The translations under genes were made by a program, and so were the position numbers. This document shows, in pieces, positions 27,511 to 46,850 of a DNA stretch of 64,000 bases (positions within the stretch are counted from its first letter, which is position 1; the number at the start of each line of letters is the position of its first letter). The stretch comes from Thermococcus sp. (GTDB taxonomy: Archaea > Methanobacteriota_B > Thermococci > Thermococcales > Thermococcaceae): contig NZ_WANV01000017.1 in the NCBI RefSeq assembly GCF_015521605.1, positions 6,013 to 70,012 of the forward strand. Reading direction: 5' to 3'. The notes under the pieces are model-generated. The model was not told the origin of the DNA. It saw only the letters and a program-made list of their open reading frames with translations, and ran no database searches.

Positions 27511-27678
27511 ATGAATTTGGTTGTTATCCTGCTGGTTGGGGCCCTACTTGGATTTGGATTTGGCTTCGTGGTTGGAGATGCCCACGGGTACCTCGCTGGC
27601 CAAAAGGAGGCAATCGAGCTGCTTTCCTTTGAGCAGAGAAAGAAGTCTCCATTTATCAGAACAAGGACGAGGTGGTGA
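27511..27678 (+). CDS. Small single-TM protein (55 aa)
   Basis: Own call, below the ORF-track cutoff. ATG 7 nt after the int stop. MNLVVILLVGALLGFGFGFVVG hydrophobic helix. Confidence 0.4.
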   Translation: MNLVVILLVGALLGFGFGFVVGDAHGYLAGQKEAIELLSFEQRKKSPFIRTRTRW

Positions 27679-27682: not shown

Positions 27683-27883
27683 GTGAGTGGGAAGCCAGTG
27701 CGCCTGGTCTCGATCAGAGGCATCGCGAGGAAGTACAACCTCAACCACATGCGCGTGTGGCGCCTGTTCAACCTCTACCATTCTATCTATGGCGACGATC
27801 CTCGCTATGTTATCATAGACGCCGATGGCAGGCGAAAACCGACGCAGAAGTTCGAAGATTTCGTGAAAAAGCTCCTCTTGTGA
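27683..27883 (+). CDS. Small HTH-like DNA-binding protein (regulator/excisionase candidate)
   Basis: GTG start within the 120-aa ORF. VRLVSIRGIARKYNLNHMRVWRLF looks like an HTH. Lies next to the integrase. Confidence 0.45.
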   Translation: MSGKPVRLVSIRGIARKYNLNHMRVWRLFNLYHSIYGDDPRYVIIDADGRRKPTQKFEDFVKKLLL

Positions 27884-28058: not shown

Positions 28059-29855
28059 GTGGATGTGATCCGGAAAAAAGCACTCGGGGTAGTAGTGGTA
28101 GCCCTTTTCCTCGCGGCCCTCGCGGGCACAGCGACCGCCGCCTCGCTCGACCTGCCGAAGTGGGTCATCGTTCCAGAGGACTCAAGCTTCAGCGACGTGA
28201 CGCTGTTCTGCGGGCTCGATGACCTTGTCAGCAATGGCGATGGAACTTATAATGTGACTGGATTCAGGGACGGGGTAAGTATCATTGCACTAGTTAATGA
28301 TACAAATACAACAAATACAAACAATCCTGCGCTTGTAGCTGGAAGAATCGGGAATGCAATTCATTTCGGAGGCGAACATTACATACAGACAACAACTTTC
28401 TATAATTACACAAAGTCGTACACTGTTGCACTCTGGTTTAGAACAACTGCAACTGGTTATTTGTTCTGGCTTAGTTATAGTGCAACATCATCTGCTCCAG
28501 CGATAGCTGTCAGAATTTACTCATCGACAACATTAGAAGTCGTAAATCTTGTTCCAAACTCTGTGTGGTTGCGTTGGTATGTTAACGCAGGGAAAACAAT
28601 TACTGACGGCGAATGGCACTTTTTAGCGATACGTTACGATGTTGGCAGTAACAGTGGGCAAGTAATACTCGATGGACAAATATTAGGGACAAACACACAA
28701 ACACCAGTAGCAACGAATTGGGCGAGGCTCGTAATCGGAGCAGCATACAATGATTATACTGATACTCTATATGGCTTTTTCACTGGTGATATTGACGAAT
28801 TTAGGGCGGTACAAAGATACCTCACTCTCGACGAAATCAAGCTCCTCTACCTCGCTGGAAGAAAGAAGCTCTCCGAGCCCGCGCAGTTCGGGCAGATTTT
28901 CAGCCCTATGATTGATTTGACAAGGGACAGGGCGACGTTCTACGCTGGTCTTGAGGTCAGCACGAGCGACCCCTCGGGCTACGTGCCCGTGCCCGAGTCA
29001 GCGGTCAACATGAGCATCACCAGCGCCCCGAAGCTCACGAGCGACTACACAAACGCCCCGTTCTACTACCAGGGCCACTACTGGTACCGCGCCGACAAGA
29101 TACAATTCAATTTGCCCATACAGTTCGAGACCGTCCGCGAGAGCGGCGGCTTCTCAAAGGAAATCCTCCTCGACGAGGACAGCAAGACCTTCGTCTACGA
29201 GAAGGAGTTCAAGGTCACCAACCCCACCGCGGCGAAGCTGAACGTCGTCTACACCGTTGACCCCACCGCGCTCGGCTTCTCCGTGCTCCAGTACCCGCAG
29301 TTTGAACTTGACGGCGTCAGCATGGCGGAGTGGAGCCCGAGCAACTCCTCGACGCTCTACCTCATCCGCACCGACTCGCTTGACCCCGGCGAAATCAGCA
29401 CACACTGGATAAAGAGCACCTGGACGATTAGCAAGGAGGAGCTGGAGTTCCCTGCGAAGCTCGACGACTTCAGGAGCATCACCGATTGGACCGCAGCGCA
29501 GAGGATGGCCGAGAATACCCTCGAGGGCAAGACCGACACCTACGTCAAGGTCATCAAAATCGACAGCAACGCGGACGTTTCCAATGTGACTATTCTCGTC
29601 CCGCTCAAGGACGTCAAGGATGAGAACGACGTTATCGAGGCTACAGCCCTCACCGGCGCCAGGGACACGCTCCAGGTCGAGAAGCTCGAAGATGGAAAAG
29701 TCGTCGTGAAAGTGCCCGGCCAGGACTTTGTGAGCGGCCACGCCGAGATAAAGGTTCTCTACAACAAGAGCGGCGGCTCTTGGTTCAGCCAGCTCCTCGA
29801 CAAGATACGCTCGCTCATCGCGAAGATAAAGTCTCTGATTTTCGGGGGTGGCTGA
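28059..29855 (+). CDS. Secreted LamG/concanavalin-A-like lectin-domain protein (adhesin candidate)
   Basis: Signal peptide KKALGVVVVALFLAALAGTATA. LamG pattern GNAIHFGG..YTVALWFRT..GEWHFLAIRYD..LVIGA..FTGDIDEFRAVQRYLTLDEI. GTG start after GGAGGG. Confidence 0.75.
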   Translation: MDVIRKKALGVVVVALFLAALAGTATAASLDLPKWVIVPEDSSFSDVTLFCGLDDLVSNGDGTYNVTGFRDGVSIIALVNDTNTTNTNNPALVAGRIGNAIHFGGEHYIQTTTFYNYTKSYTVALWFRTTATGYLFWLSYSATSSAPAIAVRIYSSTTLEVVNLVPNSVWLRWYVNAGKTITDGEWHFLAIRYDVGSNSGQVILDGQILGTNTQTPVATNWARLVIGAAYNDYTDTLYGFFTGDIDEFRAVQRYLTLDEIKLLYLAGRKKLSEPAQFGQIFSPMIDLTRDRATFYAGLEVSTSDPSGYVPVPESAVNMSITSAPKLTSDYTNAPFYYQGHYWYRADKIQFNLPIQFETVRESGGFSKEILLDEDSKTFVYEKEFKVTNPTAAKLNVVYTVDPTALGFSVLQYPQFELDGVSMAEWSPSNSSTLYLIRTDSLDPGEISTHWIKSTWTISKEELEFPAKLDDFRSITDWTAAQRMAENTLEGKTDTYVKVIKIDSNADVSNVTILVPLKDVKDENDVIEATALTGARDTLQVEKLEDGKVVVKVPGQDFVSGHAEIKVLYNKSGGSWFSQLLDKIRSLIAKIKSLIFGGG

Positions 29856-29897
29856 CTTGGTTGTTTGCGCCACCGTAATAGCTCGCATCGAGGTGAT

Positions 29898-31229
29898 ATG
29901 AAGATGGTTGGGTGGAAAAAGCCCCTCGGCCTCCTGGCCGTTTTCCTGGTTGTGTTTTCCGTCTTTGCCGTAGTGAGGGCAGCGACCATCACCAACGTGG
30001 AGTGGGAGAATGCCATCACCGACCCCGGCATCGAGCTGATTCCAGGCTATCCGGCCACCGTGAACGTCACCATACTGACTTCCAGCGGTGAGCCCTTTGC
30101 CCTCGCGAACCTCCAGGGCGCCGACACGATATCAGTGACTGGAAAGTTCGTGGATGAATATGGAAACGCTCTCGACATGAACGGCGACGGCACCGCCGAC
30201 ATCTACACCTTCTCAAATACCTCCACGCCGGGCCTTTGGACGGCGACGATCAACGTCTCGAACGTCCAGCCGGGCATGTACACTCTCAAGATCGAGGCCA
30301 TAGCGCAGAACAGCACCACCAGCACCATCATCGACAACGCGACCCTTGAGCTCCAGGTTTGGGTCGCAGGGGGTCCGTATTGGGTCGCGATTGCCAACAT
30401 TAAGGACGGTGACACGGTCGAGATTGGGAGCACAAGCTTCACCATCCGCGGTCTCTCCGACCTCGGCGCTATCCTCGACCTCGGGAACCTGAGCACGCAG
30501 ACCCTGACTGACGACGATAGGGACGGAATTTTCAGCTGGCAGCACGACGTGACCGGCGACGGCACGAATGATTGGGTCGTCTTTGTCAAGAGCGACGACA
30601 GCGAGGACGTGTACAACCTCTTCGTCTACTCTGCTGACGCGACCCTCCTCGACAACATCAACATGAGCGACACATTCTACCGCGTTAAGGGTGACAGGAT
30701 CAAGTTCCCGAACAGGGTCTTCAAAGACCTGAACAGGTACAACGCTTATGTCGTGTGGGACGAGAGCTGGCTTGCGAAGCTCGGCCTGAAGGCAGTGGAT
30801 TACTACATAATACCACTCCAGGGCCGCGAGCACTGGAGGGAAGGCATTGGCAACGTCGAGAGGACTGACATAAAGGTCATCAAGAGGACGACCTACCTCT
30901 TCGGCCTGTTCGGGAACGAGGAGGAAGTCTACAGCGGCAACATCTTTGGAAAGAACGTCAACATAGACAACATCCTGAGCATCTTCGGAAAGTTTGTTGG
31001 CAACGCGGCCTATCTAGGCCAGGGAATTTGGGAGATCAAGAGGGGCATAGGCGACATAACAATCCCGAACGACTACACTCTCAAGAGCCGCGAGGCAAGA
31101 GATCTTGCAATAGACGATGAGCTCTGGCGCGGCTTCAACCCGCTCAAGACCGACAAGAGAGGCTTCTTCAGCAAGAGCATTGATTGGGAAGACCTCCTCG
31201 GCATCATGACCGAGGACAGCGAGAGCTGA
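29898..31229 (+). CDS. Secreted protein, unknown function (Ig-like N-terminal region likely)
   Basis: 444 aa from ATG 29898. Signal peptide MKMVGWKKPLGLLAVFLVVFSVFAVVRA and many NxT/S sequons. Confidence 0.6.
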   Translation: MKMVGWKKPLGLLAVFLVVFSVFAVVRAATITNVEWENAITDPGIELIPGYPATVNVTILTSSGEPFALANLQGADTISVTGKFVDEYGNALDMNGDGTADIYTFSNTSTPGLWTATINVSNVQPGMYTLKIEAIAQNSTTSTIIDNATLELQVWVAGGPYWVAIANIKDGDTVEIGSTSFTIRGLSDLGAILDLGNLSTQTLTDDDRDGIFSWQHDVTGDGTNDWVVFVKSDDSEDVYNLFVYSADATLLDNINMSDTFYRVKGDRIKFPNRVFKDLNRYNAYVVWDESWLAKLGLKAVDYYIIPLQGREHWREGIGNVERTDIKVIKRTTYLFGLFGNEEEVYSGNIFGKNVNIDNILSIFGKFVGNAAYLGQGIWEIKRGIGDITIPNDYTLKSREARDLAIDDELWRGFNPLKTDKRGFFSKSIDWEDLLGIMTEDSES

Positions 31230-31245
31230 GGGGGCCTGATACTCT

Positions 31246-32808
31246 ATGAGGGCCCTTCCAGCGACTTTCATCATTTTCATTATGCTCTTTTCGACGCTCA
31301 GCGTTGCAGTAGCTGACAGCAGCTTCAACGAGACAGTCACTCAGCCTCAGCTCCCACACCTCACAATCTCTGACTACGTGAACAAGGCTCTCATCGCCAT
31401 CAAGGCCTGGCGCTTCGACAGCACCGGGCTAATCAGGACGAACACGGGCATCTACGTGGATGAGCAGTTTTGGGATTGGGTGACTGGCTCGATCCAGGCA
31501 AGCGCAAACCTCACCGACATGGCGCTGGACTGGCTGAACACCTTCAAGCAGAAGGTCCAGAACGACGAGGAAGTCGACTGGATCATCATCACCTGGCTGA
31601 AGCCGAACGATCGCATCAAAGAGGCCCTTGAGGCAGTTGGGGCGAAAGTCATCTACGTTGACGAGGGCATCCATGCAATCACCATCCGCGCCCGCCCGAG
31701 CCTCATCAAGAACCTCGTCTATTCCAAGGCCTTCGACTTCGGCTACCGCTTCTACATCAGAGAAGTTTGGCCAGACCTCTACGTCGCCAACAGCCCGGCA
31801 ACAGTTGAGAACGTCAACGCGGCCCTCCTCCAGGGCAACATCACTCCCGAACAGGTGGCCAACGCCAACTGGAACATCAAGCTGATAAAAGCGGATTTGG
31901 CCTGGAGCAAGAAGGGTATCACGGGCAAGGGTGTCACGATAGCGATCGTCGATACGGGCGTGGACTGCGACCACGTCATGCTCCAGGGCGCGTGCATAGC
32001 CAAAGCCAACTTCGTGAGCGACGAGCCTTCCGATGACCTCAACGGCCACGGAACCCACGTGGCCAGCATCGCCGCAGGGCGGCCAGTTAAGGTGAACGTG
32101 GACGGAAAAATTGTCTACGTGAGCGGTGTTGCGCCAGAAGCGAATGTTTTGGCCGTGAAAGTGCTCGGCAAGGACGGCGGGGGCACAATGACACAGATCA
32201 TCCAGGGGCTGGACTATGTTGTGGAATGGAAGAAGAAGCACCCTGACGAGCCGATAGTCGTGAGCATGAGCCTCGGAAGCCCGTTCGGAAGCCCAAGAGA
32301 CCCGATGGTCCAGAAGGTTGAACAGCTCATCAGGGAGGAGCACATCCCGGTCGTCATCGCGGCCGGAAACGAGTTCGTGGTCATAGACAGCCCCGGCATC
32401 GCCACCGGCGCCATCACCGTGGCCGCGGTTGACAGGGACATGAAGGTGGCCGAGTTCTCGGGCAAGGGGCCAGGCCTGAACATCTACGACATCAAGCCGG
32501 ACATAGCAGCTCCTGGCGTCAAGATAGTCGCCGCGAGGGCCGGAACGAAGAACGAGTTCATAGCCATGAGCGGAACCAGCATGGCCACACCGCACGTTTC
32601 CGGAGTTGTCGCCCTCATTCTCCAGGAGCACGGCACGCTGACGCCAGAGACTGTCAAGATGATCCTCCAGAAGACCGCTTATCCCTTGGACGGCATCAAC
32701 GCACTCCCGACCTGGAGTGGTGCGGGACTAGTGGATGCTTACGCCGCCGTGAACGCAGAGCCACCGAAAGAGAGCTTTTGGGGTTGGCTCGGGAGGCTGC
32801 TGCCATGA
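31246..32808 (+). CDS. Element-encoded secreted subtilisin-like serine protease (S8)
   Basis: 520 aa with a signal peptide. Triad motifs IAIVDTGVD, HGTHVASI and [12 protein letters not shown], plus an N-terminal propeptide-like region. Confidence 0.85.
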   Translation: MRALPATFIIFIMLFSTLSVAVADSSFNETVTQPQLPHLTISDYVNKALIAIKAWRFDSTGLIRTNTGIYVDEQFWDWVTGSIQASANLTDMALDWLNTFKQKVQNDEEVDWIIITWLKPNDRIKEALEAVGAKVIYVDEGIHAITIRARPSLIKNLVYSKAFDFGYRFYIREVWPDLYVANSPATVENVNAALLQGNITPEQVANANWNIKLIKADLAWSKKGITGKGVTIAIVDTGVDCDHVMLQGACIAKANFVSDEPSDDLNGHGTHVASIAAGRPVKVNVDGKIVYVSGVAPEANVLAVKVLGKDGGGTMTQIIQGLDYVVEWKKKHPDEPIVVSMSLGSPFGSPRDPMVQKVEQLIREEHIPVVIAAGNEFVVIDSPGIATGAITVAAVDRDMKVAEFSGKGPGLNIYDIKPDIAAPGVKIVAARAGTKNEFIAMSGTSMATPHVSGVVALILQEHGTLTPETVKMILQKTAYPLDGINALPTWSGAGLVDAYAAVNAEPPKESFWGWLGRLLP

Positions 32809-32951
32809 AGAAGTTCATCCTTTTCCTCCTCATTATTCTCCTCTTCACACTGTTCCTCGTCGGCGTGCAGAAGTTCCTGGAGAACGTCAGCCTCGCCATT
32901 GCGATCGCCCTCGTGCTCCGCATTGTGGATGAGTATGTGGATGGTGATTAG
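32805..32951 (+). CDS. Small TM protein (48 aa)
   Basis: Own call. ATGA overlap with the subtilase stop. MKKFILFLLIILLFTLFLVG. Confidence 0.45.
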   Translation: MKKFILFLLIILLFTLFLVGVQKFLENVSLAIAIALVLRIVDEYVDGD

Positions 32952-32953
32952 CC

Positions 32954-33211
32954 GTGTGGGGTTTGGAAGATAAACCGCTTCCTCTGAGGTTGGGAATAGC
33001 GATCCTCGCTGACGTCATTGATGCCCTGAACATGATTCCAGGGCTCAGCGACATCATCGAGGCTCCGCTTAACGCCTTCATAGCCTATGCCCTAACTGAC
33101 AATGTAAAAGCCTTGGCAGTGGGTGCTGCAGACGGTATCCTTCCAGCGCCGATTGACTGGTTCCCTTCAGCGACCATTATGGTGCTCGCAGATGAGTTCG
33201 GCTGGATTTGA
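32954..33211 (+). CDS. Small hydrophobic protein (85 aa)
   Basis: GTG start 2 nt after the previous stop. Amphipathic/hydrophobic sequence. Confidence 0.5.
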   Translation: MWGLEDKPLPLRLGIAILADVIDALNMIPGLSDIIEAPLNAFIAYALTDNVKALAVGAADGILPAPIDWFPSATIMVLADEFGWI

Positions 33212-33251
33212 GCTTTCGTTTTCTTCCTTCATCAAAGCGAGGTGAGAGAAA

Positions 33252-33623
33252 ATGAGTGCTGTTGGGCTGATCCTCGTCACTCTCATTGGGGCATTCATAC
33301 TCGCCACGGCCCTGTATTCATCAGGCGAGATGGCATTGGTTGTTGCTATCGGTTCGTTTGTAGCTCTTACCTTCCTCAAGCCCGAGCTGCTCTTCGAGGA
33401 CGTTTTTGCAATACAGGGGGTCATGTACTTCAAAGTGATTACGATACTTTTCGGCTATGTCTGGTACCTTGCAGGCTATGTCTTCGGGAACGTGGCCAAG
33501 TGGATTCTTGGAATAGCTCTCCTCGGCGTCTTCCTGTGGAGCCAGGGAATACACAGCATCAGCGACATCAAAAACGCGATCCAGCTTTCAAGCGGACTGG
33601 TCTTCTGGCTGGTGAGGGGGTGA
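33252..33623 (+). CDS. Polytopic membrane protein (123 aa, about 4 TM)
   Basis: Successive hydrophobic stretches, same strand, tight spacing. Confidence 0.6.
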   Translation: MSAVGLILVTLIGAFILATALYSSGEMALVVAIGSFVALTFLKPELLFEDVFAIQGVMYFKVITILFGYVWYLAGYVFGNVAKWILGIALLGVFLWSQGIHSISDIKNAIQLSSGLVFWLVRG

Positions 33624-33628
33624 GATGA

Positions 33629-34345
33629 GTGTACAACCCCGAGCTCGCCGCTACGACCTCGCAGGCCGTCATGCTCAGCATCCTCATCGTTGCTACTGCC
33701 TTCTTCGCCTACTTTGTGGTCTCCAAAAGGGCCGACATCTTTGGGGCGATCCTGCTCATGCTTCTCACAGCCTTCATGGCGAGGAATTACTATTACGTTG
33801 TCTACAGTGCGGGAGCGATGCTCGTCCTCGCCACTGTCGCTTACCTCACCAGCTATGACGAGGGGACAGTATCAGGGGCACTCTTTTGGGCCGGAATCGG
33901 GCTCTTTGCCTCGCTCATGATATTCTACGTCATGCCCGAGACAGTCAAGATGGGACAGGATCAAGCCTTTATCTACATCGTGCTCGTCCCGAGCTTCCTC
34001 ATTGTCCTCATTTCGGACTGGAAAGGGAAGTTTAACTTCGAGTGGGAGAACGCGCTGGCGATATTGATCCCGATCGCCTTTGCATTGGCTTTCGTCAGCA
34101 TGGTTGGGACATCCCACATCATTTGGGGGGCCGCGATCATGCTCTTCGGGATCATACTTGAATACTTCAATGCAGGCTTCGCCTCGACGGTGGCATTTGT
34201 CTCTGGATTCATTATCTGGCTTGATGACGTCATTGGGTACTCTTTGTATCCGAACTATGGCAATACTGCGGCCCTCCACATCCTCGGCCCTGTGGGAGCC
34301 GGGCTTGCGCTGATATATCTCTACCTGCTCGTGTGGGGTGATTGA
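33629..34345 (+). CDS. Polytopic membrane protein (238 aa, about 7 TM)
   Basis: Hydrophobic throughout. GTG start 5 nt after the previous stop. Confidence 0.65.
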   Translation: MYNPELAATTSQAVMLSILIVATAFFAYFVVSKRADIFGAILLMLLTAFMARNYYYVVYSAGAMLVLATVAYLTSYDEGTVSGALFWAGIGLFASLMIFYVMPETVKMGQDQAFIYIVLVPSFLIVLISDWKGKFNFEWENALAILIPIAFALAFVSMVGTSHIIWGAAIMLFGIILEYFNAGFASTVAFVSGFIIWLDDVIGYSLYPNYGNTAALHILGPVGAGLALIYLYLLVWGD

Positions 34346-34997
34346 GATGAAGAAGAAAGCCCTTGCAGTTTTCGTTTTGTTTCTGATTGTAGCGGCCCCC
34401 ACGGTGGGCGCATGGAGCCTGAAAGACCTGCTCAAAGGCACGGCAAGCCACGCCCTCGACCTTTTCACGAGAGAAGTGATGCCAGTCGATGGATACAAAG
34501 GCCTCAAGGTCGGCGAAGGCTTCTGGATCGAGGGCGAGCACTTCTGGAACCCTGACTACTACGTCCAGCTCAACGACAGTAGAGTCTACTGGAGCTACCT
34601 CGTGCCGACAGACGTGGACGTGAAAGTGCAGGTCTGGAAGGTCTATCTTGGCATCTTTGCGTTCCCCTACGCGACCTACGACGACATCTGGTGGAAGAAA
34701 GAGAAGGTTGGGGACGGCTGGATTGGAGCGTTCTTCGTGTGGGACTTCAGCTGGAGGCCCGGCCACGGTTGGAGACCTGCAGGAAAGGCATACATCGCTT
34801 ACAACCTGCCGAGCGCCCAAGACCTCAACGTCAAGAACGTCACGATACTCCAGAACGGCTCGGTTCAGGTTCTCTTCAACGACAACACGACGAAGCTCCT
34901 GAGCTTTGAGGAGTTTGAAGGCTTCGGGAACATGACTGTTGAGAACGTGACGTTCCGTCACCTGGTTGGGAACCTCTACTTGGTGAAAAGGGGGTGA
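34338..34997 (+). CDS. Secreted protein (219 aa)
   Basis: Signal peptide MKKKALAVFVLFLIVAAPTVGA. 8-nt overlap with the upstream gene. Confidence 0.6.
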   Translation: MIEMKKKALAVFVLFLIVAAPTVGAWSLKDLLKGTASHALDLFTREVMPVDGYKGLKVGEGFWIEGEHFWNPDYYVQLNDSRVYWSYLVPTDVDVKVQVWKVYLGIFAFPYATYDDIWWKKEKVGDGWIGAFFVWDFSWRPGHGWRPAGKAYIAYNLPSAQDLNVKNVTILQNGSVQVLFNDNTTKLLSFEEFEGFGNMTVENVTFRHLVGNLYLVKRG

Positions 34998-35001
34998 AAG
35001 G

Positions 35002-35127
35002 ATGTTTGGACTGGAGGTTCTGAACCTGAGTCCCGAGACGGCCTTCGCGGTAGGGGTGCTCTTCGGCCTGCTCCTGGCGTGGGGAATATACGAAGACCTG
35101 TACGCAGACAGGAGGGCACGGGCATGA
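35002..35127 (+). CDS. Small TM protein (41 aa)
   Basis: Own call. FAVGVLFGLLLAWGI helix. ATGA overlap with the next gene. Confidence 0.35.
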   Translation: MFGLEVLNLSPETAFAVGVLFGLLLAWGIYEDLYADRRARA

Positions 35128-35441
35128 GCCTGAGAACAGGCCTGATCCTCGCCCTGGCCTACATCGTGCCCTTCGCCATACTCATGCCACCGCAGAGCAC
35201 AAACGATCCCACCAGCGTCTTCCTCTGGTTCCTCTATCCTGTCATTTCAGGGATCATCATGGTCGGCGTCGTCATCGTCGCCTGGAAGTTCTTCGACATC
35301 GACTTCATCCCGTGGGGCCTGCTACTCCTCGTAGGCGCTCCACTGCTCACGCTGCTACTTAGTCCAATCTTCAGCCTCATGTGGGGCTTCTACATCGTGC
35401 CGACGGCCCTCGTCTTCCTCGTCGGCCTCCTGGAGGGGTGA
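35124..35441 (+). CDS. Membrane protein (105 aa, 3 TM)
   Basis: ATG 35124 within the 120-aa ORF. MSLRTGLILALAYIVPFAIL. Confidence 0.6.
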   Translation: MSLRTGLILALAYIVPFAILMPPQSTNDPTSVFLWFLYPVISGIIMVGVVIVAWKFFDIDFIPWGLLLLVGAPLLTLLLSPIFSLMWGFYIVPTALVFLVGLLEG

Positions 35442-35443
35442 GA

Positions 35444-35584
35444 ATGGTCAGCAAGAAGGTGTACCTCAAAAGGAAGCGCGAAATCCTGCACCGCGTCATC
35501 ACGAACCTTCAGAAGGAGCTCGCGCGGGTGAACCGCGAGCTGAAACAGCTTGAGAGGGGTGAGAGCCATGGAGCCCGCTCATGA
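35444..35584 (+). CDS. Small coiled-coil protein (46 aa)
   Basis: Own start choice (ATG 35444, 2 nt after the previous stop). KKVYLKRKREILHRVITNLQKELARVNRELKQLE. Confidence 0.4.
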   Translation: MVSKKVYLKRKREILHRVITNLQKELARVNRELKQLERGESHGARS

Positions 35585-36479
35585 ACCCGAAGTCAGGGAG
35601 GACATCCGCGGCGAGCTCGCAAAGAAGGTTAAGAACAAAAACGAGAACAGACAGAGGTTCTGGAGGCTGGCTATCACCTTCATCGGTAGCCTGCTTGGCT
35701 TCGGCCTCATAGCCTACGCCGCGCCAGGGTTCTACGAGACAACCCTGAGCATCCATGAGAGCCTCGCCGCGCCCCGCTACAGCTTCTACGTCCTGGTGGG
35801 CTCGATAGCATTCGTCGAGTTCATGCGCATGACGTGGGTCGAGAGCGCCAAAGCCCGCTCAAAGAGACTCATCCCGCTCACCAGCCCGGAGACGGAGATT
35901 TGGGTCAAGGAGAAGCCGCTCATCGGGCTCAAGCTTCCGTTCACGAACCGCGAGATCAAGAACAAGAGGATAAAGCCCCACATCGTTGAGACCGAGCTCG
36001 GCTGGCGCGTGTATCCGAATAAGTCTCTCCTCTCGCCGCAGTGGAACGGCGAGATATACTTCATCCCCTACGACAGCATCCACGGCTACGGCAACACGAG
36101 GATCATCAGCGCCAGGAAGCCAAGCCAGCCGACCTACTATGAGACCGATCCAGTCACGGGCGAGGCTATCCCTGTCTACGTGTGGGAGCCGATTGACCTC
36201 GGCGAAGAGAAGTACATGAAAGCGCAGAAGGAGATCGCTTACCTCCAGGCCGAGAACAGGATTCTGAAAGAGTACGCCGAGCGCGGTTACCTGCTCGCTA
36301 AAGAAATCAGCCAGATCCCGCAAGAGTTCTTCGAGGAGCTCTCCAACAGAGGCTTCGAGAAGGCGAAGCAGATCCTCGACATCATGGGCAAGGGCTTCTT
36401 CAGCGAGGTCGGGAAGATCAAGAAGGAGGAAATCTCCGCCATTCTGGAAGCAATCAAGAAAGACCGCGAAGCCTGGTGA
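35568..36479 (+). CDS. Membrane protein with two N-terminal TM helices and a C-terminal helical domain (303 aa)
   Basis: FWRLAITFIGSLLGFGLIAYAAP and YVLVGSIAFVEFMRM helices. C-terminus is heptad-like. Confidence 0.6.
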   Translation: MEPAHEPEVREDIRGELAKKVKNKNENRQRFWRLAITFIGSLLGFGLIAYAAPGFYETTLSIHESLAAPRYSFYVLVGSIAFVEFMRMTWVESAKARSKRLIPLTSPETEIWVKEKPLIGLKLPFTNREIKNKRIKPHIVETELGWRVYPNKSLLSPQWNGEIYFIPYDSIHGYGNTRIISARKPSQPTYYETDPVTGEAIPVYVWEPIDLGEEKYMKAQKEIAYLQAENRILKEYAERGYLLAKEISQIPQEFFEELSNRGFEKAKQILDIMGKGFFSEVGKIKKEEISAILEAIKKDREAW

Positions 36480-36592
36480 CTCTTTCGTTTTCAATTTCCG
36501 CCGTGAAAGGGGCCGGACGTGAGTAGGGGTCCCGAAAGCGTCCGCCCCCACGGCAACGCCGGCCCGTGTGGGCCGAAAACTGCCGCGAGGTG

Positions 36593-36615
36593 ATCAAGTC
36601 AAGACGTGACTTGAT
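36593..36615. repeat. Perfect 9-bp inverted repeat ATCAAGTCA-n5-TGACTTGAT
   Basis: Read directly. Lies in the only sizeable intergenic gap (36480-36670) of the long + strand gene array, 55 nt upstream of the wHTH gene. Confidence 0.6.
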
Positions 36616-36670
36616 GGCTTGAAGGCCACATATCAGGAAAATCACACATTCCAAAACGGGAGGTGAAAAG

Positions 36671-37216
36671 GTGGCGAACGGGTTAGTCCTGAGTAGGTTT
36701 GAGTATATTTCGCGTTTGAAGGCCGAAGCGGCCGAGGATGGGGAAGCCAAGTACCTTGACCTCGCCCTTTCTCTCATGGAGAAAGCAGCGCAGCTCGAGG
36801 AGGAGATGGAGAAGGTCCCTGGAATCTACCGTGAGAAAAAGCTCGAGATAGCAAAGTCGATCATAGAACAATACCGCCAAGCGAATGAGCTCCTCGTCAA
36901 GGCGATTCTTGTTGGAGAGAGCGCCGAGATGGCACTAAGGAAGCTCGAAAGGATGCTGAGCTCACGAGCAACGCTGAGGACGAAGATTATCGCGGCCCTC
37001 TATGGGGAGACAGAACCAATCGGCCCCTCCGAGCTCGCCGAACGCTTTGGCATCTCGGCGCAGGCAGTGCATCAGGCGCTCCAGGAGCTCGACAAGCTCA
37101 AGGTCGTGGAGAAGGACGAGAAAGGCCGCTACAAGCTCCGTGACGGCGTGATGGACGAAGTCTTCAGGCTTCTCTGGCAGAGCGTCGCAGAGCTCAAGGC
37201 GAGGGGAGCGATATGA
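36671..37216 (+). CDS. Winged-helix DNA-binding protein (181 aa)
   Basis: C-terminal wHTH PIGPSELAERFGISAQAVHQALQELDKLKVVEKDEKGRYKL. GTG after GGAGGTGA. Confidence 0.6.
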   Translation: MANGLVLSRFEYISRLKAEAAEDGEAKYLDLALSLMEKAAQLEEEMEKVPGIYREKKLEIAKSIIEQYRQANELLVKAILVGESAEMALRKLERMLSSRATLRTKIIAALYGETEPIGPSELAERFGISAQAVHQALQELDKLKVVEKDEKGRYKLRDGVMDEVFRLLWQSVAELKARGAI

Positions 37217-38466
37217 TGAGCGCATATCTCGACCGCTTCGTCGTCCAGCCGCAGGAAATCAAAATCGACCAGCCGAGAACCCACGCCGTAGGCATCACGC
37301 GCGGGAAAAACTTCGTCTATGTCTCGGCAGACATGGTGCACAGATACATCTCCGGCCAGACCAACGCGGGAAAAACAACCCTCGCACAGACGCTCATGGA
37401 GGTAGACTTCCTTCGCGGCAGAAAAATCGTCGAGATTGAGCCCGCTCTGGAAGCAAAAAACGAGCGGGCATTCATGAACCTGCCAAATGACGATGACGGC
37501 ATGCTTGAGGTTCTCACCAAGTACTTCCGCCTTGAGCCGAGGCCCTTCAAGGCCATCGTGTACTCTCCAGCGACACGGAAGTACCGCGCTTTCATGAAGA
37601 ACGACGAGGGGATCCGCTCGAAGTTCTACAAGTCGCTCAAGATCACCGAGCCCGACGTTGTTGACCTAATCCCGGCCATTTTCCCGGGTGGATCCATTGA
37701 AAGGCTCATCATCAACAAGGCATATAAGAAATACACTGAAGAGATTAGGCCAAAGAGGAAAGAGCGCTCTATATCAGAATTCCTGGAAGTCTTCGAGGAG
37801 ATTGGGAAAGGGGCAAACTTTAGCAGCTTCACCTTGCTGAAAATCGAATACATAGCAAGCGTCCTCCACAGCAATGGAGAGTACAAAATAGATGAAATAC
37901 TCAAGAAAAAAGACGAGATCAGCGTCTTCACGTTCACTTTCATAAGAGACCCACTCGAAAGGTATCTGTGGGCCATGGCCATTCTCAACATTATCTATGA
38001 CAGGTGGGAGTACCTCAAGCGGAAAGATGATATTCTGAGCTTCTATGTAGCCGATGCCCATCTGCTCGCACCAAAGAAGAAGAAAGACATGATCGACACC
38101 CTCGCCAGGTACCAGGAGCGCATGAAGCAGAACTTACAAGTCTACTCGAGAATCTCGCGAGGAAAAGGCCTATTGTGGACATTTGACAGCCAGGAGTTTG
38201 ATGATCTGGACGATGTCGTGGTCGCACAGTGTCAGGAGCGCTTCATCAAGCGCATGAGAAACCAAGAAGTGGCAGACAAGCTAAAGATAAACGATGCAGA
38301 GTTGAGGCGCCTGGACAAGAAGTTCGCCTACTTCGACGACGGCTACATGGTGAAGAAAATCCTTGTCAGGCCGCCCATGAGCCGGAAGGCCCGTTCTGGA
38401 GAATTTCTCCCGATCCACTTCGTGAAAGAATACGAGAGGTGGGAGAATGAGGAGGCGAATTATTAG
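37213..38466 (+). CDS. P-loop ATPase, HerA/FtsK/VirB4-like
   Basis: 417 aa. Walker A GQTNAGKTT and Walker B-like ILSFYVADAH. 4-nt overlap with the wHTH gene. Confidence 0.7.
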   Translation: MMSAYLDRFVVQPQEIKIDQPRTHAVGITRGKNFVYVSADMVHRYISGQTNAGKTTLAQTLMEVDFLRGRKIVEIEPALEAKNERAFMNLPNDDDGMLEVLTKYFRLEPRPFKAIVYSPATRKYRAFMKNDEGIRSKFYKSLKITEPDVVDLIPAIFPGGSIERLIINKAYKKYTEEIRPKRKERSISEFLEVFEEIGKGANFSSFTLLKIEYIASVLHSNGEYKIDEILKKKDEISVFTFTFIRDPLERYLWAMAILNIIYDRWEYLKRKDDILSFYVADAHLLAPKKKKDMIDTLARYQERMKQNLQVYSRISRGKGLLWTFDSQEFDDLDDVVVAQCQERFIKRMRNQEVADKLKINDAELRRLDKKFAYFDDGYMVKKILVRPPMSRKARSGEFLPIHFVKEYERWENEEANY

Positions 38467-39646
38467 CGTCTTACTCATAATAATATATATGAATATAGCA
38501 CTTCATACCTATGCACTCGCATTTACATGGCAGCGGGAGGTCAGGCTCGGCGAACCCATTCTCATATATCATAATGATACCCTGCTCTATAACATCAGCA
38601 TCGAGATCAACAAGCAGGACAACCATACCTACGCCCTCATCCAGGACCTCCAGGCCGGAAGGCTCCTGGTTGAGAATATCGACTGGAACACTGTCGAGCT
38701 CGACGATACCAATATCAGCATCGTGAGCACGAGGAAGAGCATTCAGAACAAAACCGCCCTCATCATCATCACTGGTCCTGATGCCTACGCCGTGCTCCTC
38801 CAGGGCGAGCTGGCCAATGAGACCGAGCCGGAGAACCTGACGAACATCACTGTCGCGAACCAGACGAACCAGACCAACACCACCCCGACGAACCTGACTC
38901 CCGTCAATCTCACGCCCATCAACCTCACTCCCGTGATAATTCCAGAAAACGTTACCTGTGAGAGCGTCGAGGAGTGCCAGCAAATAATCGACAACCTGAC
39001 CGCACAGCTCGAACAGCTGAAGCAAGAGCGCGACGAACTGGCCAAACAGCTCCAGTACCTCCAGCAGCAACTCAACATGACTCAAACCGAAAACGAGCAG
39101 CTGAGAAAGCAGATCGAGATACTCCAGAAAGCCCTTGAGGAGAGGAACCAGCGCATCCGCGAGCTCGAAGAGGAGATCGAGCGCCTCAAGGCCGAACAGT
39201 GGTCGTGGGAGACTGCAAAGGAGAAGGCCGAAGAGCAGTACATGCTGTGGACGCCCTGGATATTCCCGCTTGTCTTGGGCGGGCTCGTCGTGAGCTACAG
39301 GAAATACAAGAAGATGAAGAAGTACGCCGAAGTCATGATCGACCAGAAGGCCCGGGAGCTCAAGGAGGAGCTTCTCTCTGAATACCTCAAGAAGGATCTG
39401 CTGAGGGCGAAGATCGAGACCATAGTCGATGATCCAAACCTCCTGGTTATTCTGAGAACCATCATCCCGCAGCTAACTGGAAGCCAGGAGATTACAAAGG
39501 GCGACATCCTCGAGCTCGACGTTGACCAGGTCGCAGAGCTCGCGAGGAAGAAGTTCCTCCTCAAGGAGAACCGCGTCGAGTACCTCAAGAAGAAGCTCAT
39601 CGAGCTGAAAGAAAAAATAAAGGAGGAGGCGGGCGGAGATGTTTGA
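38447..39646 (+). CDS. Type I membrane protein: sequon-rich ectodomain, long coiled coil, TM helix, cytoplasmic tail (399 aa)
   Basis: N-terminal hydrophobic leader, 15 NxT/S sequons, coiled coil LTAQLEQLKQERDELAKQLQYLQQQL.., TM WIFPLVLGGLVVSY. Confidence 0.65.
   Translation: MRRRIISVLLIIIYMNIALHTYALAFTWQREVRLGEPILIYHNDTLLYNISIEINKQDNHTYALIQDLQAGRLLVENIDWNTVELDDTNISIVSTRKSIQNKTALIIITGPDAYAVLLQGELANETEPENLTNITVANQTNQTNTTPTNLTPVNLTPINLTPVIIPENVTCESVEECQQIIDNLTAQLEQLKQERDELAKQLQYLQQQLNMTQTENEQLRKQIEILQKALEERNQRIRELEEEIERLKAEQWSWETAKEKAEEQYMLWTPWIFPLVLGGLVVSYRKYKKMKKYAEVMIDQKARELKEELLSEYLKKDLLRAKIETIVDDPNLLVILRTIIPQLTGSQEITKGDILELDVDQVAELARKKFLLKENRVEYLKKKLIELKEKIKEEAGGDV
38891..38935 (+). repeat. 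Three tandem 15-bp units encoding NLTPV/NLTPI/NLTPV
   Basis: AACCTGACTCCCGTC / AATCTCACGCCCATC / AACCTCACTCCCGTG, read directly. Confidence 0.8.
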
Positions 39647-39911
39647 ATGGTTTCTCTACATCTCCCTGGCCCTCGGGGCCTGGCTGATCTATGAGGTCGT
39701 GGCCGACAAAGTTCATGGCCCCGGCCGATACTGGATAACCCTCAACGTCGAGGGCGATGCCGACCGCGTCGAGTACCTCATCAGGCAACTCGCAAAGGAG
39801 CAGAAAATCAAGATCAGGAGCTACAAAGTCACGACCGAAAAACCCTCCAAACGCAAGAGGAAAAAGCTTTTTGGAGGTTTGCCGAAAAAAGAAAAGGAGG
39901 GTGCCACATGA
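39639..39911 (+). CDS. Small membrane protein with Lys-rich tail (90 aa)
   Basis: N-terminal TM helix FLYISLALGAWLIYEVV and a C-terminal KRKRKKLFGGLPKKEKE. Overlaps both neighbours. Confidence 0.5.
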   Translation: MFEWFLYISLALGAWLIYEVVADKVHGPGRYWITLNVEGDADRVEYLIRQLAKEQKIKIRSYKVTTEKPSKRKRKKLFGGLPKKEKEGAT

Positions 39912-41269
39912 AGAGGCTCGCCGCCTTTCTCATCTTTCTCCTCGCCGGTGCCATAGTGCCGGCCGCGGTGATGGCTGAAGGAGCGGTCGCGACGATCCAC
40001 GTTGAGGCAGGGATGCCCGAGACCATAACAATCCCCGGAGCGATAGTGAACTGGACCGGGGAGTTCCAGTATACGGCTGGCAAAGGATGGGAAGCCTACT
40101 TCAAAGTTCACTTTACCGAGACAGGCAACCCCCACGACGTGACAGCCACAGAACGCGGCTTTGTTGACTCTGACGGAAAATACATCTGGATTCTGACAGA
40201 CGTCCAAGTAACCGACAATCCGGAGGAGAAAGAACTCACACTCTACGGAGAGTGGAACCAATTCTTGGTCAAGGAGATCAATCCGCTGACCGGAGAGGCT
40301 AAGATATACAACGCCAGAGATGATAAGATCTACACGCTCCACAAGGGTGAAGAAGTGGAAATCGGGCAATTTGATATCACTGAACGAACCACCCTCGAGC
40401 TCAAAGACCTGACATGGAGCAGTGTTAGACTCATGCTCCACCACTACACGGTAGCCAGCGGGACTGTCGAAGTGTATCCAAATCCCGGCTATCCTCCGGG
40501 GACAGAGCTCGAAGAAGGAATGACGCCTACTCTTACAACAAACTCAACACCACAGCCCTTCATAGATCCGACAAAAGTTCCGGCGGTGATGATCGTTGTC
40601 GGTGAGCACGCAGCAGGGGCTGATGTGGCAGCAGGAGCAAAAGTTGGAATAGCAGTGCAGAAATGGATAGACGAATCCGACAGCCTCATCGAGTGGCTTC
40701 CCCTGCCCTCAACCGTCGTCAAGGCATACAAAGAACTCAAGAAAAGCTTCATACGCGCCGACGCGATGCTTGATACTGAGGTAACCGACCCCAACAAGAT
40801 GGCGCCAATCGTCTACAGTGTTGGGGGGCCGGCAGCGAACGAGTATTCAGCCATGCTCAACAACAGAACCGACCTGCCAGTGCGCTTTGTCAAGGAGAAC
40901 GGCAAGTGGTACCTCGTGAGCAAATACGGCGACAAGTGGAGCGGGAGCTACGGTGTCATTGAGGTAATACCCTCTGCAAGGACTCCAGAGGAAATGAAAG
41001 AGCACCTACTCAACGGCGACTTCAAACTCTACGACGTGCTCGTTGCAGGGCTTGACAGGAAAGGTACTTATGCAGCGTGCAAGCTGCTAAACGCCAACTT
41101 CATGGACATGCTCAACGGCCAGAAGCCGGATCCGAGGCTCATGAACCTCATCACCCTCCAGGCCCAACTCAACATGCTCTTCAGCGGCTACTTCTACCTC
41201 GACCAGGCCAATGCCGTGGCGATTGTTGTGGACGAAAATGGAAAAATAGTGGAAGTTGTAGCGGGGTGA
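39908..41269 (+). CDS. Secreted protein with weak S-layer-protein-like C-terminal half (453 aa)
   Basis: Signal peptide MKRLAAFLIFLLAGAIVPAAVMA. VMIVVGEHAAGADV and YSVGGPAANEY resemble the VGGPxxN motifs I remember from euryarchaeal S-layer proteins. Confidence 0.55.
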   Translation: MKRLAAFLIFLLAGAIVPAAVMAEGAVATIHVEAGMPETITIPGAIVNWTGEFQYTAGKGWEAYFKVHFTETGNPHDVTATERGFVDSDGKYIWILTDVQVTDNPEEKELTLYGEWNQFLVKEINPLTGEAKIYNARDDKIYTLHKGEEVEIGQFDITERTTLELKDLTWSSVRLMLHHYTVASGTVEVYPNPGYPPGTELEEGMTPTLTTNSTPQPFIDPTKVPAVMIVVGEHAAGADVAAGAKVGIAVQKWIDESDSLIEWLPLPSTVVKAYKELKKSFIRADAMLDTEVTDPNKMAPIVYSVGGPAANEYSAMLNNRTDLPVRFVKENGKWYLVSKYGDKWSGSYGVIEVIPSARTPEEMKEHLLNGDFKLYDVLVAGLDRKGTYAACKLLNANFMDMLNGQKPDPRLMNLITLQAQLNMLFSGYFYLDQANAVAIVVDENGKIVEVVAG

Positions 41270-41288: not shown

Positions 41289-41642
41289 TTACTCATAATT
41301 CAGGCGAAGTACAAAAGCACCTAACAATATAAGTAAGTTTATGAGTGCTGAGGTCATTGGGAGGTTTCCTTGGAGCAATATCCAAATGGCAAAGAGATAC
41401 CCTCCAATCCGCGCGAGAACGTAACATGCTGGCGCAGTAAATCCCTCACCTGCCGTTGCGAGTATACTCGCTATATCGGCCAATGCAAATATACTCACAA
41501 ATAATAGTCTTATCCATCCTGGAGTGCTTGAGGGAAACAATGTTATAAGTACAGCATATATTGCTGAAACAGCAATACCCAAAACTGTTCCAACCAATAC
41601 TTCTCCTACAGTATCTCCCACAACAGAAAATGGATTGTCCAT
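41289..41642 (-). CDS. Membrane protein (117 aa, 4 TM), the only minus-strand gene called in the element
   Basis: Hydrophobic ORF in the AT-rich islet. Confidence 0.55.
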   Translation of the reverse strand: MDNPFSVVGDTVGEVLVGTVLGIAVSAIYAVLITLFPSSTPGWIRLLFVSIFALADIASILATAGEGFTAPACYVLARIGGYLFAIWILLQGNLPMTSALINLLILLGAFVLRLNYE

Positions 41643-41874: not shown

Positions 41875-41964
41875 ATGGCGGGCGAACCTAGTGCTAAAAT
41901 CATCGAGCCCCTGGCAAAGTATCCTACAAAGGTAATATACTATGAGCGGGGGATAGAGCAATGA
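41875..41964 (+). CDS. 29-aa upstream ORF duplicating the 5' end of the next gene
   Basis: Own call. MAGEPSAKIIEPLAKY.. compared with the downstream MTEQEAKIIEPLAKF.. Its TGA overlaps the downstream ATG. Confidence 0.3.
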   Translation: MAGEPSAKIIEPLAKYPTKVIYYERGIEQ

Positions 41965-42410: not shown

Positions 42411-42412
42411 GT

Positions 42413-42677: not shown

Positions 42678-42693
42678 AAAATCTCGGAAGGTG

Positions 42694-46848: not shown

Positions 46849-46850
46849 CC

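Follow-up and report, generated by a model that had tools for sequence, protein, structure and literature searches.

We analysed a 64,000-nucleotide (nt) stretch of Thermococcus sp. DNA (NZ_WANV01000017.1; hereafter the window) and examined within it a module of 17 genes at 28059-41269 that is, almost certainly, the conserved arm of a pAMT11/TKV1-family plasmid, integrated by an SSV-type integrase into the tRNA-Arg(CCG) gene of a Thermococcus-like genome. All 17 plus-strand open reading frames (ORFs) that a preliminary description had placed in this interval are present, with lengths in order of 598, 443, 520, 48, 85, 123, 238, 219, 41, 105, 46, 303, 181, 417, 399, 90 and 453 amino acids (aa); the lengths listed in that description agree, except that the second protein is 443 aa from the ATG at 29898, where 444 had been given. 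The tight packing it noted also holds for the most part. Most neighbouring ORFs overlap by 4-20 nt or lie 2-5 nt apart, and the large gaps stand at 42 nt (29856-29897), 40 nt (33212-33251) and 191 nt (36480-36670), with a further 16-nt gap (31230-31245) that had been overlooked. Shine-Dalgarno sequences resembling GGAGGTGA lie upstream of most start codons. Six products (the LamG, 443-aa, subtilase, 219-, 399- and 453-aa proteins) have Sec-type N-termini, and eight of the 17 are membrane proteins. The LamG, subtilase, winged-helix and S-layer-like domains, the sequon-rich coiled coil, and the GQTNAGKTT and FYVADAH motifs of the 417-aa protein, all named in the earlier account, were recovered. 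The module is laid out as follows, where TM denotes transmembrane, HMM hidden Markov model, dN/dS the ratio of nonsynonymous to synonymous substitution rates, AF2 AlphaFold2, and labels beginning with L the related loci described below.

28059-29855, plus strand: 598-aa Sec-exported LamG/ConA-like lectin protein, candidate adhesin, marker ORF1 (PF13385, 6e-16; signal-like hydrophobic N-terminus)
29898-31229, plus strand: 443-aa Sec-exported protein, universal core, marker ORF2 (in all loci covering the position)
31246-32808, plus strand: 520-aa secreted S8 subtilase with a pro-region, universal core, marker ORF3 (PF00082, 5e-55)
32805-32951, plus strand: 48-aa two-helix hydrophobic hairpin, universal core (in 11 of 12 tabulated family loci, absent from L012; dN/dS 0.07-0.13)
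32954-33211, plus strand: 85-aa acidic amphipathic protein, the best-conserved small component (46-53% identity, Thermococcus versus Archaeoglobus)
33252-33623, plus strand: 123-aa polytopic membrane protein with about 4 TM segments by hydropathy, universal core (found by iterated HMM in all loci except L012)
33629-34345, plus strand: 238-aa polytopic protein with 8-9 helices by hydropathy, channel candidate, universal core (12 of 12 family loci)
34338-34997, plus strand: 219-aa Sec-exported protein (signal-like N-terminus; in Thermococcales, L002, L016 and L012)
35002-35127, plus strand: 41-aa single-TM peptide (homologues in TKV1, pAMT11 and L014; dN/dS 0.19-0.25)
35124-35441, plus strand: 105-aa polytopic membrane protein by hydropathy (Thermococcales loci only)
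35444-35584, plus strand: 46-aa basic coiled-coil peptide (87% identical in TKV1; dN/dS 0.14-0.21)
35568-36479, plus strand: 303-aa protein, two TM segments followed by a conserved C-terminal domain that is probably cytoplasmic, universal core (alignment A2; 32-41% identity to Archaeoglobus-type copies)
36480-36670, plus strand: conserved non-coding leader with a T-run, a GC-rich hairpin, GGAGGTGA and the perfect palindrome ATCAAGTCA-N5-TGACTTGAT at 36593-36615
36671-37216, plus strand: 181-aa coiled-coil and winged helix-turn-helix (wHTH) DNA-binding protein, universal core (MarR_2, HTH_11 and related Pfam families)
37213-38466, plus strand: 417-aa soluble P-loop ATPase of the FtsK-HerA superfamily (AF2 model, Foldseek, PADLOC profile)
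38447-39646, plus strand: 399-aa type-I membrane protein with signal peptide, sequon-rich ectodomain, coiled coil of about 95 residues, TM segment and cytoplasmic tail, universal core
39639-39911, plus strand: 90-aa N-terminally anchored basic protein by hydropathy (Thermococcales loci only)
39908-41269, plus strand: 453-aa Sec-exported S-layer-like protein, accessory, Thermococcales only (PF05124, 3.5e-8; TIGR01564 weak; in TKV1, pAMT11, L005 and L017)

Collinearity and marker genes place the module in its family. In the TKV1 region of T. kodakarensis KOD1 (AP006878, 59-79 kilobases (kb); TK0073-TK0105), all 17 genes recur in order, down to ORFs of 42 and 46 aa, at identities of 33-87%, and an SSV-type integrase is common to the integrated members. 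A plasmid collection gave one match to the ATPase, pAMT11 of Thermococcus sp. AMT11 (60% identity), whose annotation is collinear with the module (unknown 580 aa, unknown 450 aa, preprosubtilisin, small membrane proteins, ArsR-type regulator, unknown 422 aa, membrane protein); all 17 module genes have counterparts there in matching order, 16 of them by profile match, at identities of 32-69%. Three long genes, ORF1-3 (encoding a lectin-domain protein, a protein of about 445 aa and a preprosubtilisin), serve as pAMT11-family markers (Badel et al. 2020, PMC7253208), and their counterparts in the window, headed by the LamG protein, are respectively 52%, 48% and 68% identical to those of pAMT11 (tblastn) and 61%, 72% and 79% identical to those of TKV1 (global alignments). 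Together, collinearity and markers identify the cluster as the conserved arm of a known family and the present copy as a new member. The preliminary description had presented the cluster as new; it is in fact already described, with TKV1 annotated since 2005, pAMT11 since 2011 and the markers in use since 2020. Its assignment to the pT26-2 family was mistaken, as the module is collinear with pAMT11/TKV1 and its matches in the pT26-2 relative pMEFER01 are confined to the P-loop; the literature keeps pAMT11/TKV1 apart from pT26-2/TKV2/TKV3 (PMC6972569, Table 1; PMC7253208). The replication protein (Rep) was the original basis for sorting Thermococcales plasmids into families (PMC6972569). pAMT11 has a Rep-Arvir/p63-type Rep and TKV1 an MCM (PMC13107129, PMC6972569); no such family-typical replication protein was found in the present element, where Pfam and PHROGs recognised no Rep, MCM or primase in 41.3-47.9 kb. 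Because the founders differ in this respect, Rep does not define the family in practice.

Related loci were gathered by exact-protein look-ups and scans, and a scan of genome contigs with the ATPase alignment gave at least two of them. Thirteen other loci, from Thermococcus, Pyrococcus, Archaeoglobus and metagenomic archaea of low GC, keep the gene order seen here, with ATPase identities of 95% in T. thioreducens, 47% in two P. kukulkanii elements and 44-47% in Archaeoglobus profundus and Archaeoglobaceae assemblies; further loci are pAMT11, a pAMT11-like metagenomic contig with a resolvase, and metagenomic contigs of 35-38% GC (L012, L002). A core of 10-11 genes keeps a constant order at ATPase identities down to about 43%, and iterated profiles define the universal core as the genes for the 443-aa protein, the subtilase, the 48-, 85-, 123-, 238- and 303-aa proteins, the wHTH protein, the ATPase and the 399-aa protein. 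The LamG protein accompanies this core in every locus that covers the left flank apart from L003, which gave no profile match, and the 219-, 41-, 105-, 46-, 90- and 453-aa genes are restricted to particular lineages. Every copy found lies on a mobile element, next to integrase, resolvase or Rep genes. Two earlier proposals, that these genes co-occur in related elements and that they form a conserved module of an archaeal integrated mobile element, are thus upheld by a same-order core across loci. Among Archaeoglobales, integrated elements L006 (A. profundus CP001857, 723-745 kb), L003, L015 and L016 carry the module, and the 85-aa and 48-aa genes stand in swapped order in these copies. The paper that catalogued the integrases grouped only Thermococcales elements into plasmid or virus families, so the Archaeoglobales link may be unreported.

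Every module gene with a computable dS, the 41-, 46- and 48-aa ORFs included, has a dN/dS of 0.03-0.38 against the T. thioreducens and TKV1 copies, values that are approximate as dS is high; all computable module genes appear from these comparisons to be under purifying selection. Alleles are mosaic relative to the family. The wHTH and ATPase genes are of T. thioreducens type (93% and 95% identical, versus 33% and 47% to TKV1), whereas the 238-aa gene shows the opposite pattern and is of TKV1 type (87%, versus 43% to T. thioreducens). These identities indicate that cassettes recombine within the family, with wHTH and ATPase travelling together.

The borders of the element that carries the module, and the genes beside it, are given by the following features.

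26623-27504, plus strand: Int(C), the C-terminal portion of a tyrosine integrase of the SSV ('suicidal') type, here split (PF16795, 1.6e-51; TPV1 gp10 match, 1.5e-85)
26636-26675, no strand: attL, a 40-base-pair (bp) exact copy of the tRNA-Arg(CCG) 3′ end, direct repeat of 47872-47911
27683-27883, plus strand: 66-aa conserved small protein between integrase and module, 95% identical to a 64-aa TKV1 gene at the same position
41961-47411, plus strand: variable arm with an AbrB/MazE-like gene (41961-42410), a TPV1 gp05-like gene (44852-45253), a Holliday-junction resolvase (45253-45780) and a regulator (47058-47411) (Pfam; PHROGs 4.7e-87 and 1.3e-26)
47658-47911, plus strand: Int(N), N-terminal part of the split integrase as a reconstructed ORF, ending in attR (47872-47911)
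47872-47949, minus strand: tRNA-Arg(CCG), the integration target (ARAGORN; Rfam tRNA, 67.6 bits)

The Int(N) ORF ends in the right repeat and the Int(C) ORF starts in the left repeat, and joined they form one 360-aa integrase ORF. The direct repeat and the rejoinable integrase delimit an element of 21.3 kb at 26636-47911, 62% of which is taken up by the 17 module genes. The integrase is of the Int-pT26-2 suicidal type and sits at a tRNA 3′ end (PF16795, split gene, 40-bp att site); the pT26-2 family (t26-4p to t26-15p; TKV2, TKV3, pMEFER01) has an integrase of the same family, and the type is common to several unrelated element families (PMC7253208). The present element differs from TKV1 in its target, which for TKV1 is tRNA-Val(CAC) (PMC7253208), and pAMT11 differs in carrying a resolvase. 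An intact tRNA-Val(CAC) gene lies at 26123-26200, 435 bp left of attL; the element is nevertheless inserted at the neighbouring tRNA-Arg(CCG). The plus-strand run begins upstream of the module with Int(C) and the 66-aa gene, and ORFs of 66-69 aa occupy the position of the latter in P. kukulkanii and T. thioreducens as well. Two flanking ORFs, one for a 55-aa small membrane protein directly past Int(C) (27511-27678) and one for a 117-aa polytopic protein on the minus strand directly past the module (41289-41642), have no detectable relatives in the other loci; a kinship of the 117-aa protein with PAV1 ORF190 was rejected, the BLAST match being weak and between hydrophobic stretches. GC content falls to 0.49 at 40-44 kb, against about 0.55 elsewhere in the window, and GC skew climbs sharply at 42-46 kb, matching the module end and the variable arm. 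Rfam models run over the whole element detected tRNAs only.

At the centre of the module, the 417-aa ATPase proved to be of the HerA/FtsK type, as had been proposed. It has a P-loop RecA-like core of HerA/FtsK/TrwB-type topology, and its AF2 model (predicted local distance difference test score (pLDDT) 81; predicted template modelling score (pTM) 0.83) matches HerA (4d2i, 1e-10) and the conjugative coupling protein TrwB (1e9r, 7e-9; TM-score about 0.5) in Foldseek, where the best 50 matches are HerA and TrwB only. A helical insertion spans residues 146-218, and the PADLOC HerA profile matches the C-terminal half (4.9e-10). In a viral library the best matches are phage HerA-like, conjugal-transfer-like and FtsK-like proteins, and small PRD1/A32-type packaging ATPases match weakly; A32/PRD1-P9-type packaging enzymes are about half the size of the present ATPase. 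Its Walker A motif reads GQTNAGKT, and its Walker B motif FYVAD is followed by A instead of E. Invariant residues include E74 and E76 past the P-loop helix and an RPPxSRKA motif near the C-terminus, whose roles we can only infer. The family is tiny: among 1.84 billion cluster representatives, a profile search gave 26 matches at E < 0.001 and 8 at E < 1e-30, with a weak tail made up largely of HerA/DUF87/HerA_C/TrwB_AAD_bind proteins, and DUF87 is detected in ATPase homologues. The TKV1 counterpart is a 435-aa gene, TK0087 when counted from TK0077 and TK0083. The sole match to a coupling-protein family is a weak P-loop match to TraD (E 0.0038); a profile search gave no significant PDB sequence relative and tblastn no match in a phage collection. 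A remote full-length homologue (hhalign probability 97%, 355 columns) lies in L013 (JGI 3300033148, 30% GC, 1-15711), a different co-directional element in which it adjoins a 1290-aa LamG protein and which also encodes several membrane proteins; a 100-aa protein there aligns over its full length with the 85-aa family at an hhalign probability of only 7%. This adjacency suggests that the motor-plus-lectin theme is wider than the pAMT11/TKV1 family, and L013 may represent a sister family in a low-GC archaeon.

The wHTH stop overlaps the ATPase start by 4 nt (ATGA), and the wHTH gene lies directly upstream of the ATPase gene in all loci. Overlap, adjacency and common mosaic history suggest that the two products are coupled. 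The 191-bp leader that precedes them keeps its layout, with differing stem sequences, in most of 11 loci examined: a T-run past the stop codon of the preceding gene, then a GC-rich hairpin and an A-rich spacer, GGAGGTGA without an ORF behind it, and a palindrome of 7-11 bp. Equivalent gaps occur in L008 (TKV1), L004, L014, L001, L003, L006, L015, L016 and L012. The palindrome ATCAAGTCA-N5-TGACTTGAT is unique in the window, with 0.01 matches expected, and the leader matches no Rfam family; it may be a wHTH operator, a structured RNA leader or a DNA-export recognition site.

Around the motor stand exported and membrane proteins. The LamG protein finds domain-level matches in PAV1 ORF678 (1.5e-12) and TPV1 gp23 (1e-10), and its sole tblastn match in the phage collection is a betalipothrixvirus lectin domain. 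The 443-aa protein is 37% identical to its Archaeoglobus copy, and its domain is multiplied in L012. The subtilase has an intact catalytic triad, D236/H268/S445, in the motifs DTG, HGTH and GTSM, is 45-47% identical to the Archaeoglobus copies, and finds its best NCBIfam model in the mycosin of the type VII secretion system (T7SS), under the model cut-off. In the 48-aa family (alignment A7) G20 and R39 are invariant, the glycine sitting at the hairpin turn, and the 85-aa family (alignment A6) has six invariant acidic residues (D20, D23, D33, E36, D68 and D80), with 81% identity between the present protein and that of T. kodakarensis. The 303-, 85- and 48-aa families have no sequence relative in Pfam, PHROGs or NCBIfam, and profile searches of the PDB gave nothing significant for these three or for the 443-aa family. 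For the 238-aa protein, an AF2 model built from 11 homologues is all-helical with a pLDDT of 55, and Foldseek returned a best E of 0.15 with generic transporters at E > 0.1, an output that is uninterpretable at this pLDDT. The domain layout of the 303-aa protein fits a candidate membrane dock for the soluble ATPase. The 399-aa protein contains 17 N-x-S/T sequons, gives domain matches to coiled coils only, and is missing from one family locus, L012, which has a 372-aa gene at the position. A two-dimensional electrophoresis (2-DE) study reported TK0077 (5.34 kDa) as a heat-induced spot and TK0083 (11.67 kDa) as an oxidative-stress-induced spot (PMC4473059); the masses computed for the 47-aa (L008 9854-9997) and 106-aa (L008 12126-12446) proteins of TKV1 equal these values, TK0077 being the homologue of the 48-aa protein and TK0083 that of the 105-aa protein. 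Given the method, the spots are weak evidence for expression of these TKV1 homologues.

Archaeal conjugation (Sulfolobus pNOB8-type; Thermococcus pT33-3) and type IV secretion share with the module a motor of the FtsK-HerA superfamily, here with a model resembling TrwB, and archaeal conjugative plasmids likewise have polytopic and coiled-coil membrane proteins without bacterial homologues and no identified relaxase (PMC12857230). Archaeal conjugation needs only VirB4/VirD4-like ATPases together with unrelated membrane proteins (PMC12857230). The preliminary description had recognised no canonical conjugation protein, and Pfam, PHROGs and NCBIfam detected none: the ATPase gave no CagE/TrbE/VirB4 match in Pfam or NCBIfam, the element ORFs scanned with Pfam and PHROGs contain no relaxase, and the 48-aa hairpin and 85-aa protein, considered against VirB2-like pilins, have no PDB sequence relatives. 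The pT26-2 core is an analogue in layout, with large exported proteins, small membrane proteins, a HerA/VirB4-like ATPase of about 440 aa and a downstream membrane protein; it differs in having no subtilase or wHTH partner and a PEGA/carboxypeptidase-regulatory-domain protein in place of LamG, and it has no detectable sequence homology with the present module. Scanning every pMEFER01 protein with all module profiles gave no credible match to the seven pT26-2 core genes (t26-5p, 6p, 7p, 11p, 13p, 14p and 15p); the ATPases align over the P-loop only (hhalign probability 10%), and the 303-aa profile meets the protein upstream of the pMEFER01 ATPase, presumably the t26-13p counterpart, in a coiled coil only. 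pT26-2 elements occur in Thermococcales and Methanococcales, and the pAMT11/TKV1 family in Thermococcales and Archaeoglobales. The pT26-2 core has already been hypothesised to be a novel DNA/protein transfer system (PMC6972569), so that the transfer idea advanced earlier for the present cluster had been published for an analogous module.

We favour, tentatively, the reading that the arm is the element's own dissemination machinery and exports DNA in a contact-dependent manner. Its ring motor would be formed by the 417-aa soluble HerA/TrwB-like ATPase, and the translationally coupled 181-aa wHTH protein would recognise element DNA, possibly at the leader palindrome, and would also autoregulate the operon. 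The motor would dock on a membrane platform in which the 303-, 238- and 123-aa proteins, the 48-aa hairpin and the acidic 85-aa protein are joined by the coiled-coil stalk of 399 aa, and once docked would pump DNA through the membrane. On the cell exterior, the glycosylated S-layer of a partner cell might be bound by the LamG lectin and the 443-aa protein, and the S8 subtilase might cut the proteinaceous S-layer locally or mature exported components, in a role akin to that of VirB1-type hydrolases in bacterial conjugation. The module is intact though no replication gene is recognised in the present copy, which supports a real, selected machine.

Several points weigh against an exporter. The accessible literature reports no transfer of any pAMT11/TKV1-family element, and PLSDB types pAMT11 as non-mobilizable, a typing that rests on bacterial models. 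Demonstrated archaeal conjugative plasmids have both VirB4- and VirD4-like ATPases (PMC12857230), whereas the module has one ATPase only, without VirB4 signatures; Pfam and NCBIfam show no relaxase, VirB4, VirB6 or VirB2 signature in it. VirD4/TrwB proteins have an N-terminal TM anchor, whereas the present ATPase has no TM segment, and its Walker B motif reads D-A, not D-E. The archaeal conjugative plasmids measure 25-45 kb and 103 kb, whereas the present element is about 21 kb. A channel role for the 238-aa protein is conjecture on a low-confidence model. The layout of lectin, small membrane proteins, ATPase and large protein resembles PAV1/TPV1 virion modules, and the module occupies the structural-gene position of TPV1. 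A bolder formulation, which we consider doubtful, is that the arm represents a third class of archaeal machinery for spreading DNA, without homology either to type IV secretion/Ced-type conjugation or to a capsid-based virion. Such a machine would, on a somewhat unlikely view, combine a HerA-class motor and wHTH DNA adaptor with a family-specific small-membrane-protein channel and a lectin-guided, protease-assisted passage of the S-layer; it would also, as we suspect without much confidence, sit on a common backbone as one of three alternative 'vehicles' that can replace one another, the other two being the virion module of TPV1 and the core of pT26-2. Conservation of the module from Thermococcales to Archaeoglobales and remote motor relatives in the low-GC archaeal elements L012 and L013 bear on this formulation.

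The same facts that suggest an exporter would also fit a particle, and these two readings differ only in the steps we infer beyond those facts. The analysis shows the family, the order and conservation of the genes, purifying selection, the export signals, the triad of the subtilase and the fold class of the motor; DNA as the substrate, the parts played by individual membrane proteins and by the palindrome, and the preference for cell-to-cell transfer over a particle belong to the interpretation. The module might build a capsid-less, membrane-bounded particle carrying the element (a 'plasmid vesicle', or a pleomorphic or novel virion), a rival that we judge only slightly less likely than the exporter. 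In such a particle the small hydrophobic proteins and the 399-aa glycoprotein would lie in the particle membrane, with the LamG and 443-aa proteins for receptor binding; and the subtilase would open the S-layer at exit or entry, while the ATPase and wHTH protein would load DNA through a membrane portal, as in PRD1-like viruses. In membrane-portal packaging of the PRD1-like kind, a soluble FtsK-HerA-type or P-loop NTPase works with small integral membrane proteins, like those of the module. A vesicle-like particle, as in capsid-less pleolipoviruses or plasmid vesicles, would agree with glycosylated type-I membrane proteins and with the lack of a capsid gene. The element has near-identical genes in common with the isolated spindle virus TPV1, namely an integrase (gp10, 1.5e-85), an AbrB-like protein (gp28), gp05, a Holliday-junction resolvase (gp06, 84.5% aa identity) and a regulator (gp08, 1e-58). 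These backbone genes match at 1e-23 to 1e-85, and the module stands on the common backbone where TPV1 has its virion genes. Like PAV1/TPV1 (proposed 'Osirisviridae' and 'Sethviridae'), the module has a LamG/ConA-like protein, small membrane proteins and an ATPase in a co-directional block, and its recipe recalls the PAV1/TPV1 cores, in which lectin-domain proteins and numerous membrane proteins go with an ATPase and a large protein downstream (PMC12934983 supplement). The LamG domain matches, the spike-like 399-aa product (a coiled-coil type-I membrane protein, predicted to be glycosylated), the element-encoded S-layer paralogue and the long-standing 'virus-like' annotation of TKV1 (PMC8155482) point the same way. 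Yet the LamG domain is the only link that the 17 family profiles revealed to structural genes of TPV1 or PAV1; the hairpin major capsid protein (PAV1 ORF121/SSV1 VP1), the TPV1 membrane proteins and any other capsid class have no module homologue at the sequence level, and the ATPase, of HerA size, aligns with PAV1 ORF375 and TPV1 gp20 by hhalign over the P-loop only. PAV1/TPV1 have two ConA/LamG proteins ending in a C-terminal TM bundle and an AAA ATPase (PMC12934983); the module has one LamG protein, and neither it nor the other exported proteins carry the C-terminal anchors of spindle-virus lectin proteins. The subtilase, wHTH partner and HerA-type ATPase, for their part, are found in the module and not in PAV1/TPV1. 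To our knowledge, a secreted subtilase is unusual in archaeal virions. No jelly-roll or HK97 capsid, portal or terminase was found by Pfam, PHROGs or NCBIfam, in agreement with the earlier account, and 'terminase' matches are P-loop only at E of at least 0.003; at the fold level the comparison covered two of the 17 module products. The ATPase, 303-aa and 85-aa profiles, three markers of the module, matched nothing in IMG/VR, and PHROGs, the phage collection and IMG/VR showed no sequence relation to PRD1-like viruses, pleolipoviruses or plasmid vesicles. A 2026 survey of the Thermococcales virome assigned elements to 19 virus families by capsid proteins, and TKV1 and pAMT11 are absent from its text and supplement. 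A provirus of PAV1/TPV1 spindle-virus type, with the module as its morphogenesis genes, would explain the integrase type and backbone genes held in common with TPV1, the LamG-domain protein and the similar size (about 21 kb) and gene style; the strong backbone matches act as a positive control for the failure of the module profiles to find PAV1/TPV1 membrane, capsid or ATPase proteins, and PHROGs are strong for backbone genes with no structural match for the module, so this explanation is very improbable.

Benefit to the host offers a different account, in which the module remodels the surface or secretes proteins, for adhesion, extracellular proteolysis, S-layer variation or superinfection exclusion, and the ATPase energises protein export or assembly. 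In support, the integrated copy, whose integrase is split and which has no recognisable replication gene, still carries the whole module; the module is under purifying selection and is predicted to encode an S-layer paralogue, a lectin and an active-looking protease whose best, sub-threshold NCBIfam model is secretion-associated. Against these stand its confinement to mobile elements, its presence on the free plasmid pAMT11 and the coupling of a DNA-binding wHTH protein to the ATPase in every locus. Rings of the HerA/FtsK/TrwB type are nucleic-acid translocases in nearly all studied cases. The reported stress induction of two small TKV1 proteins (PMC4473059) and an equal argument made for pT26-2 cores (PMC6972569) speak for a host benefit; against it, deletion of TKV2 or TKV3 slowed T. 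kodakarensis growth according to a study cited in PMC6972569, where nothing similar is mentioned for TKV1. Overall we hold this account to be improbable. Membership of the pT26-2 family would have in its favour the Int-pT26-2-type integrase (PMC7253208), the analogous layout and several genes that pT26-2 shares with TKV1, which lie in the variable region only (PMC2926602), and the missing profile matches in pMEFER01 and the separate standing of the families leave it with hardly any credibility. A HerA-based anti-phage defence island is suggested by matches of the ATPase to the PADLOC HerA model and of the subtilase to the PADLOC subtilase and IetS models. The PADLOC scan revealed no SIR2, DUF4297, NurA or IetA-type partner, the other eight of ten scanned module proteins gave generic winged-helix or coiled-coil matches or no match, and the seven outside the scan are exported or small membrane proteins. 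With the cluster forming the conserved arm of a plasmid family, we rejected this candidate, whose chance of being correct is negligible.

The movement of plasmids between hyperthermophilic archaea enclosed only by an S-layer is little understood; there is one demonstrated euryarchaeal conjugative plasmid, with machinery that is undefined beyond two ATPases (PMC12857230). Over the accessible literature, the present analysis adds the family assignment, a 10-11-gene core reaching Archaeoglobales and low-GC archaea, the HerA/TrwB motor fold and its linkage with the wHTH protein, the conserved leader, selection on tiny ORFs, and the module swap with TPV1. The cluster itself will not surprise a specialist; a full copy (TKV1) in the genetically tractable T. 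kodakarensis makes the hypothesis directly testable there. The module is a compact candidate for plasmid transfer, conserved across at least two archaeal orders, and the occurrence of a TPV1 virion module and an envelope module on the same backbone is a natural experiment on the exchange of 'vehicles' between plasmids and viruses. If the module merely remodels the cell surface, it would still explain why such integrated elements stay intact.

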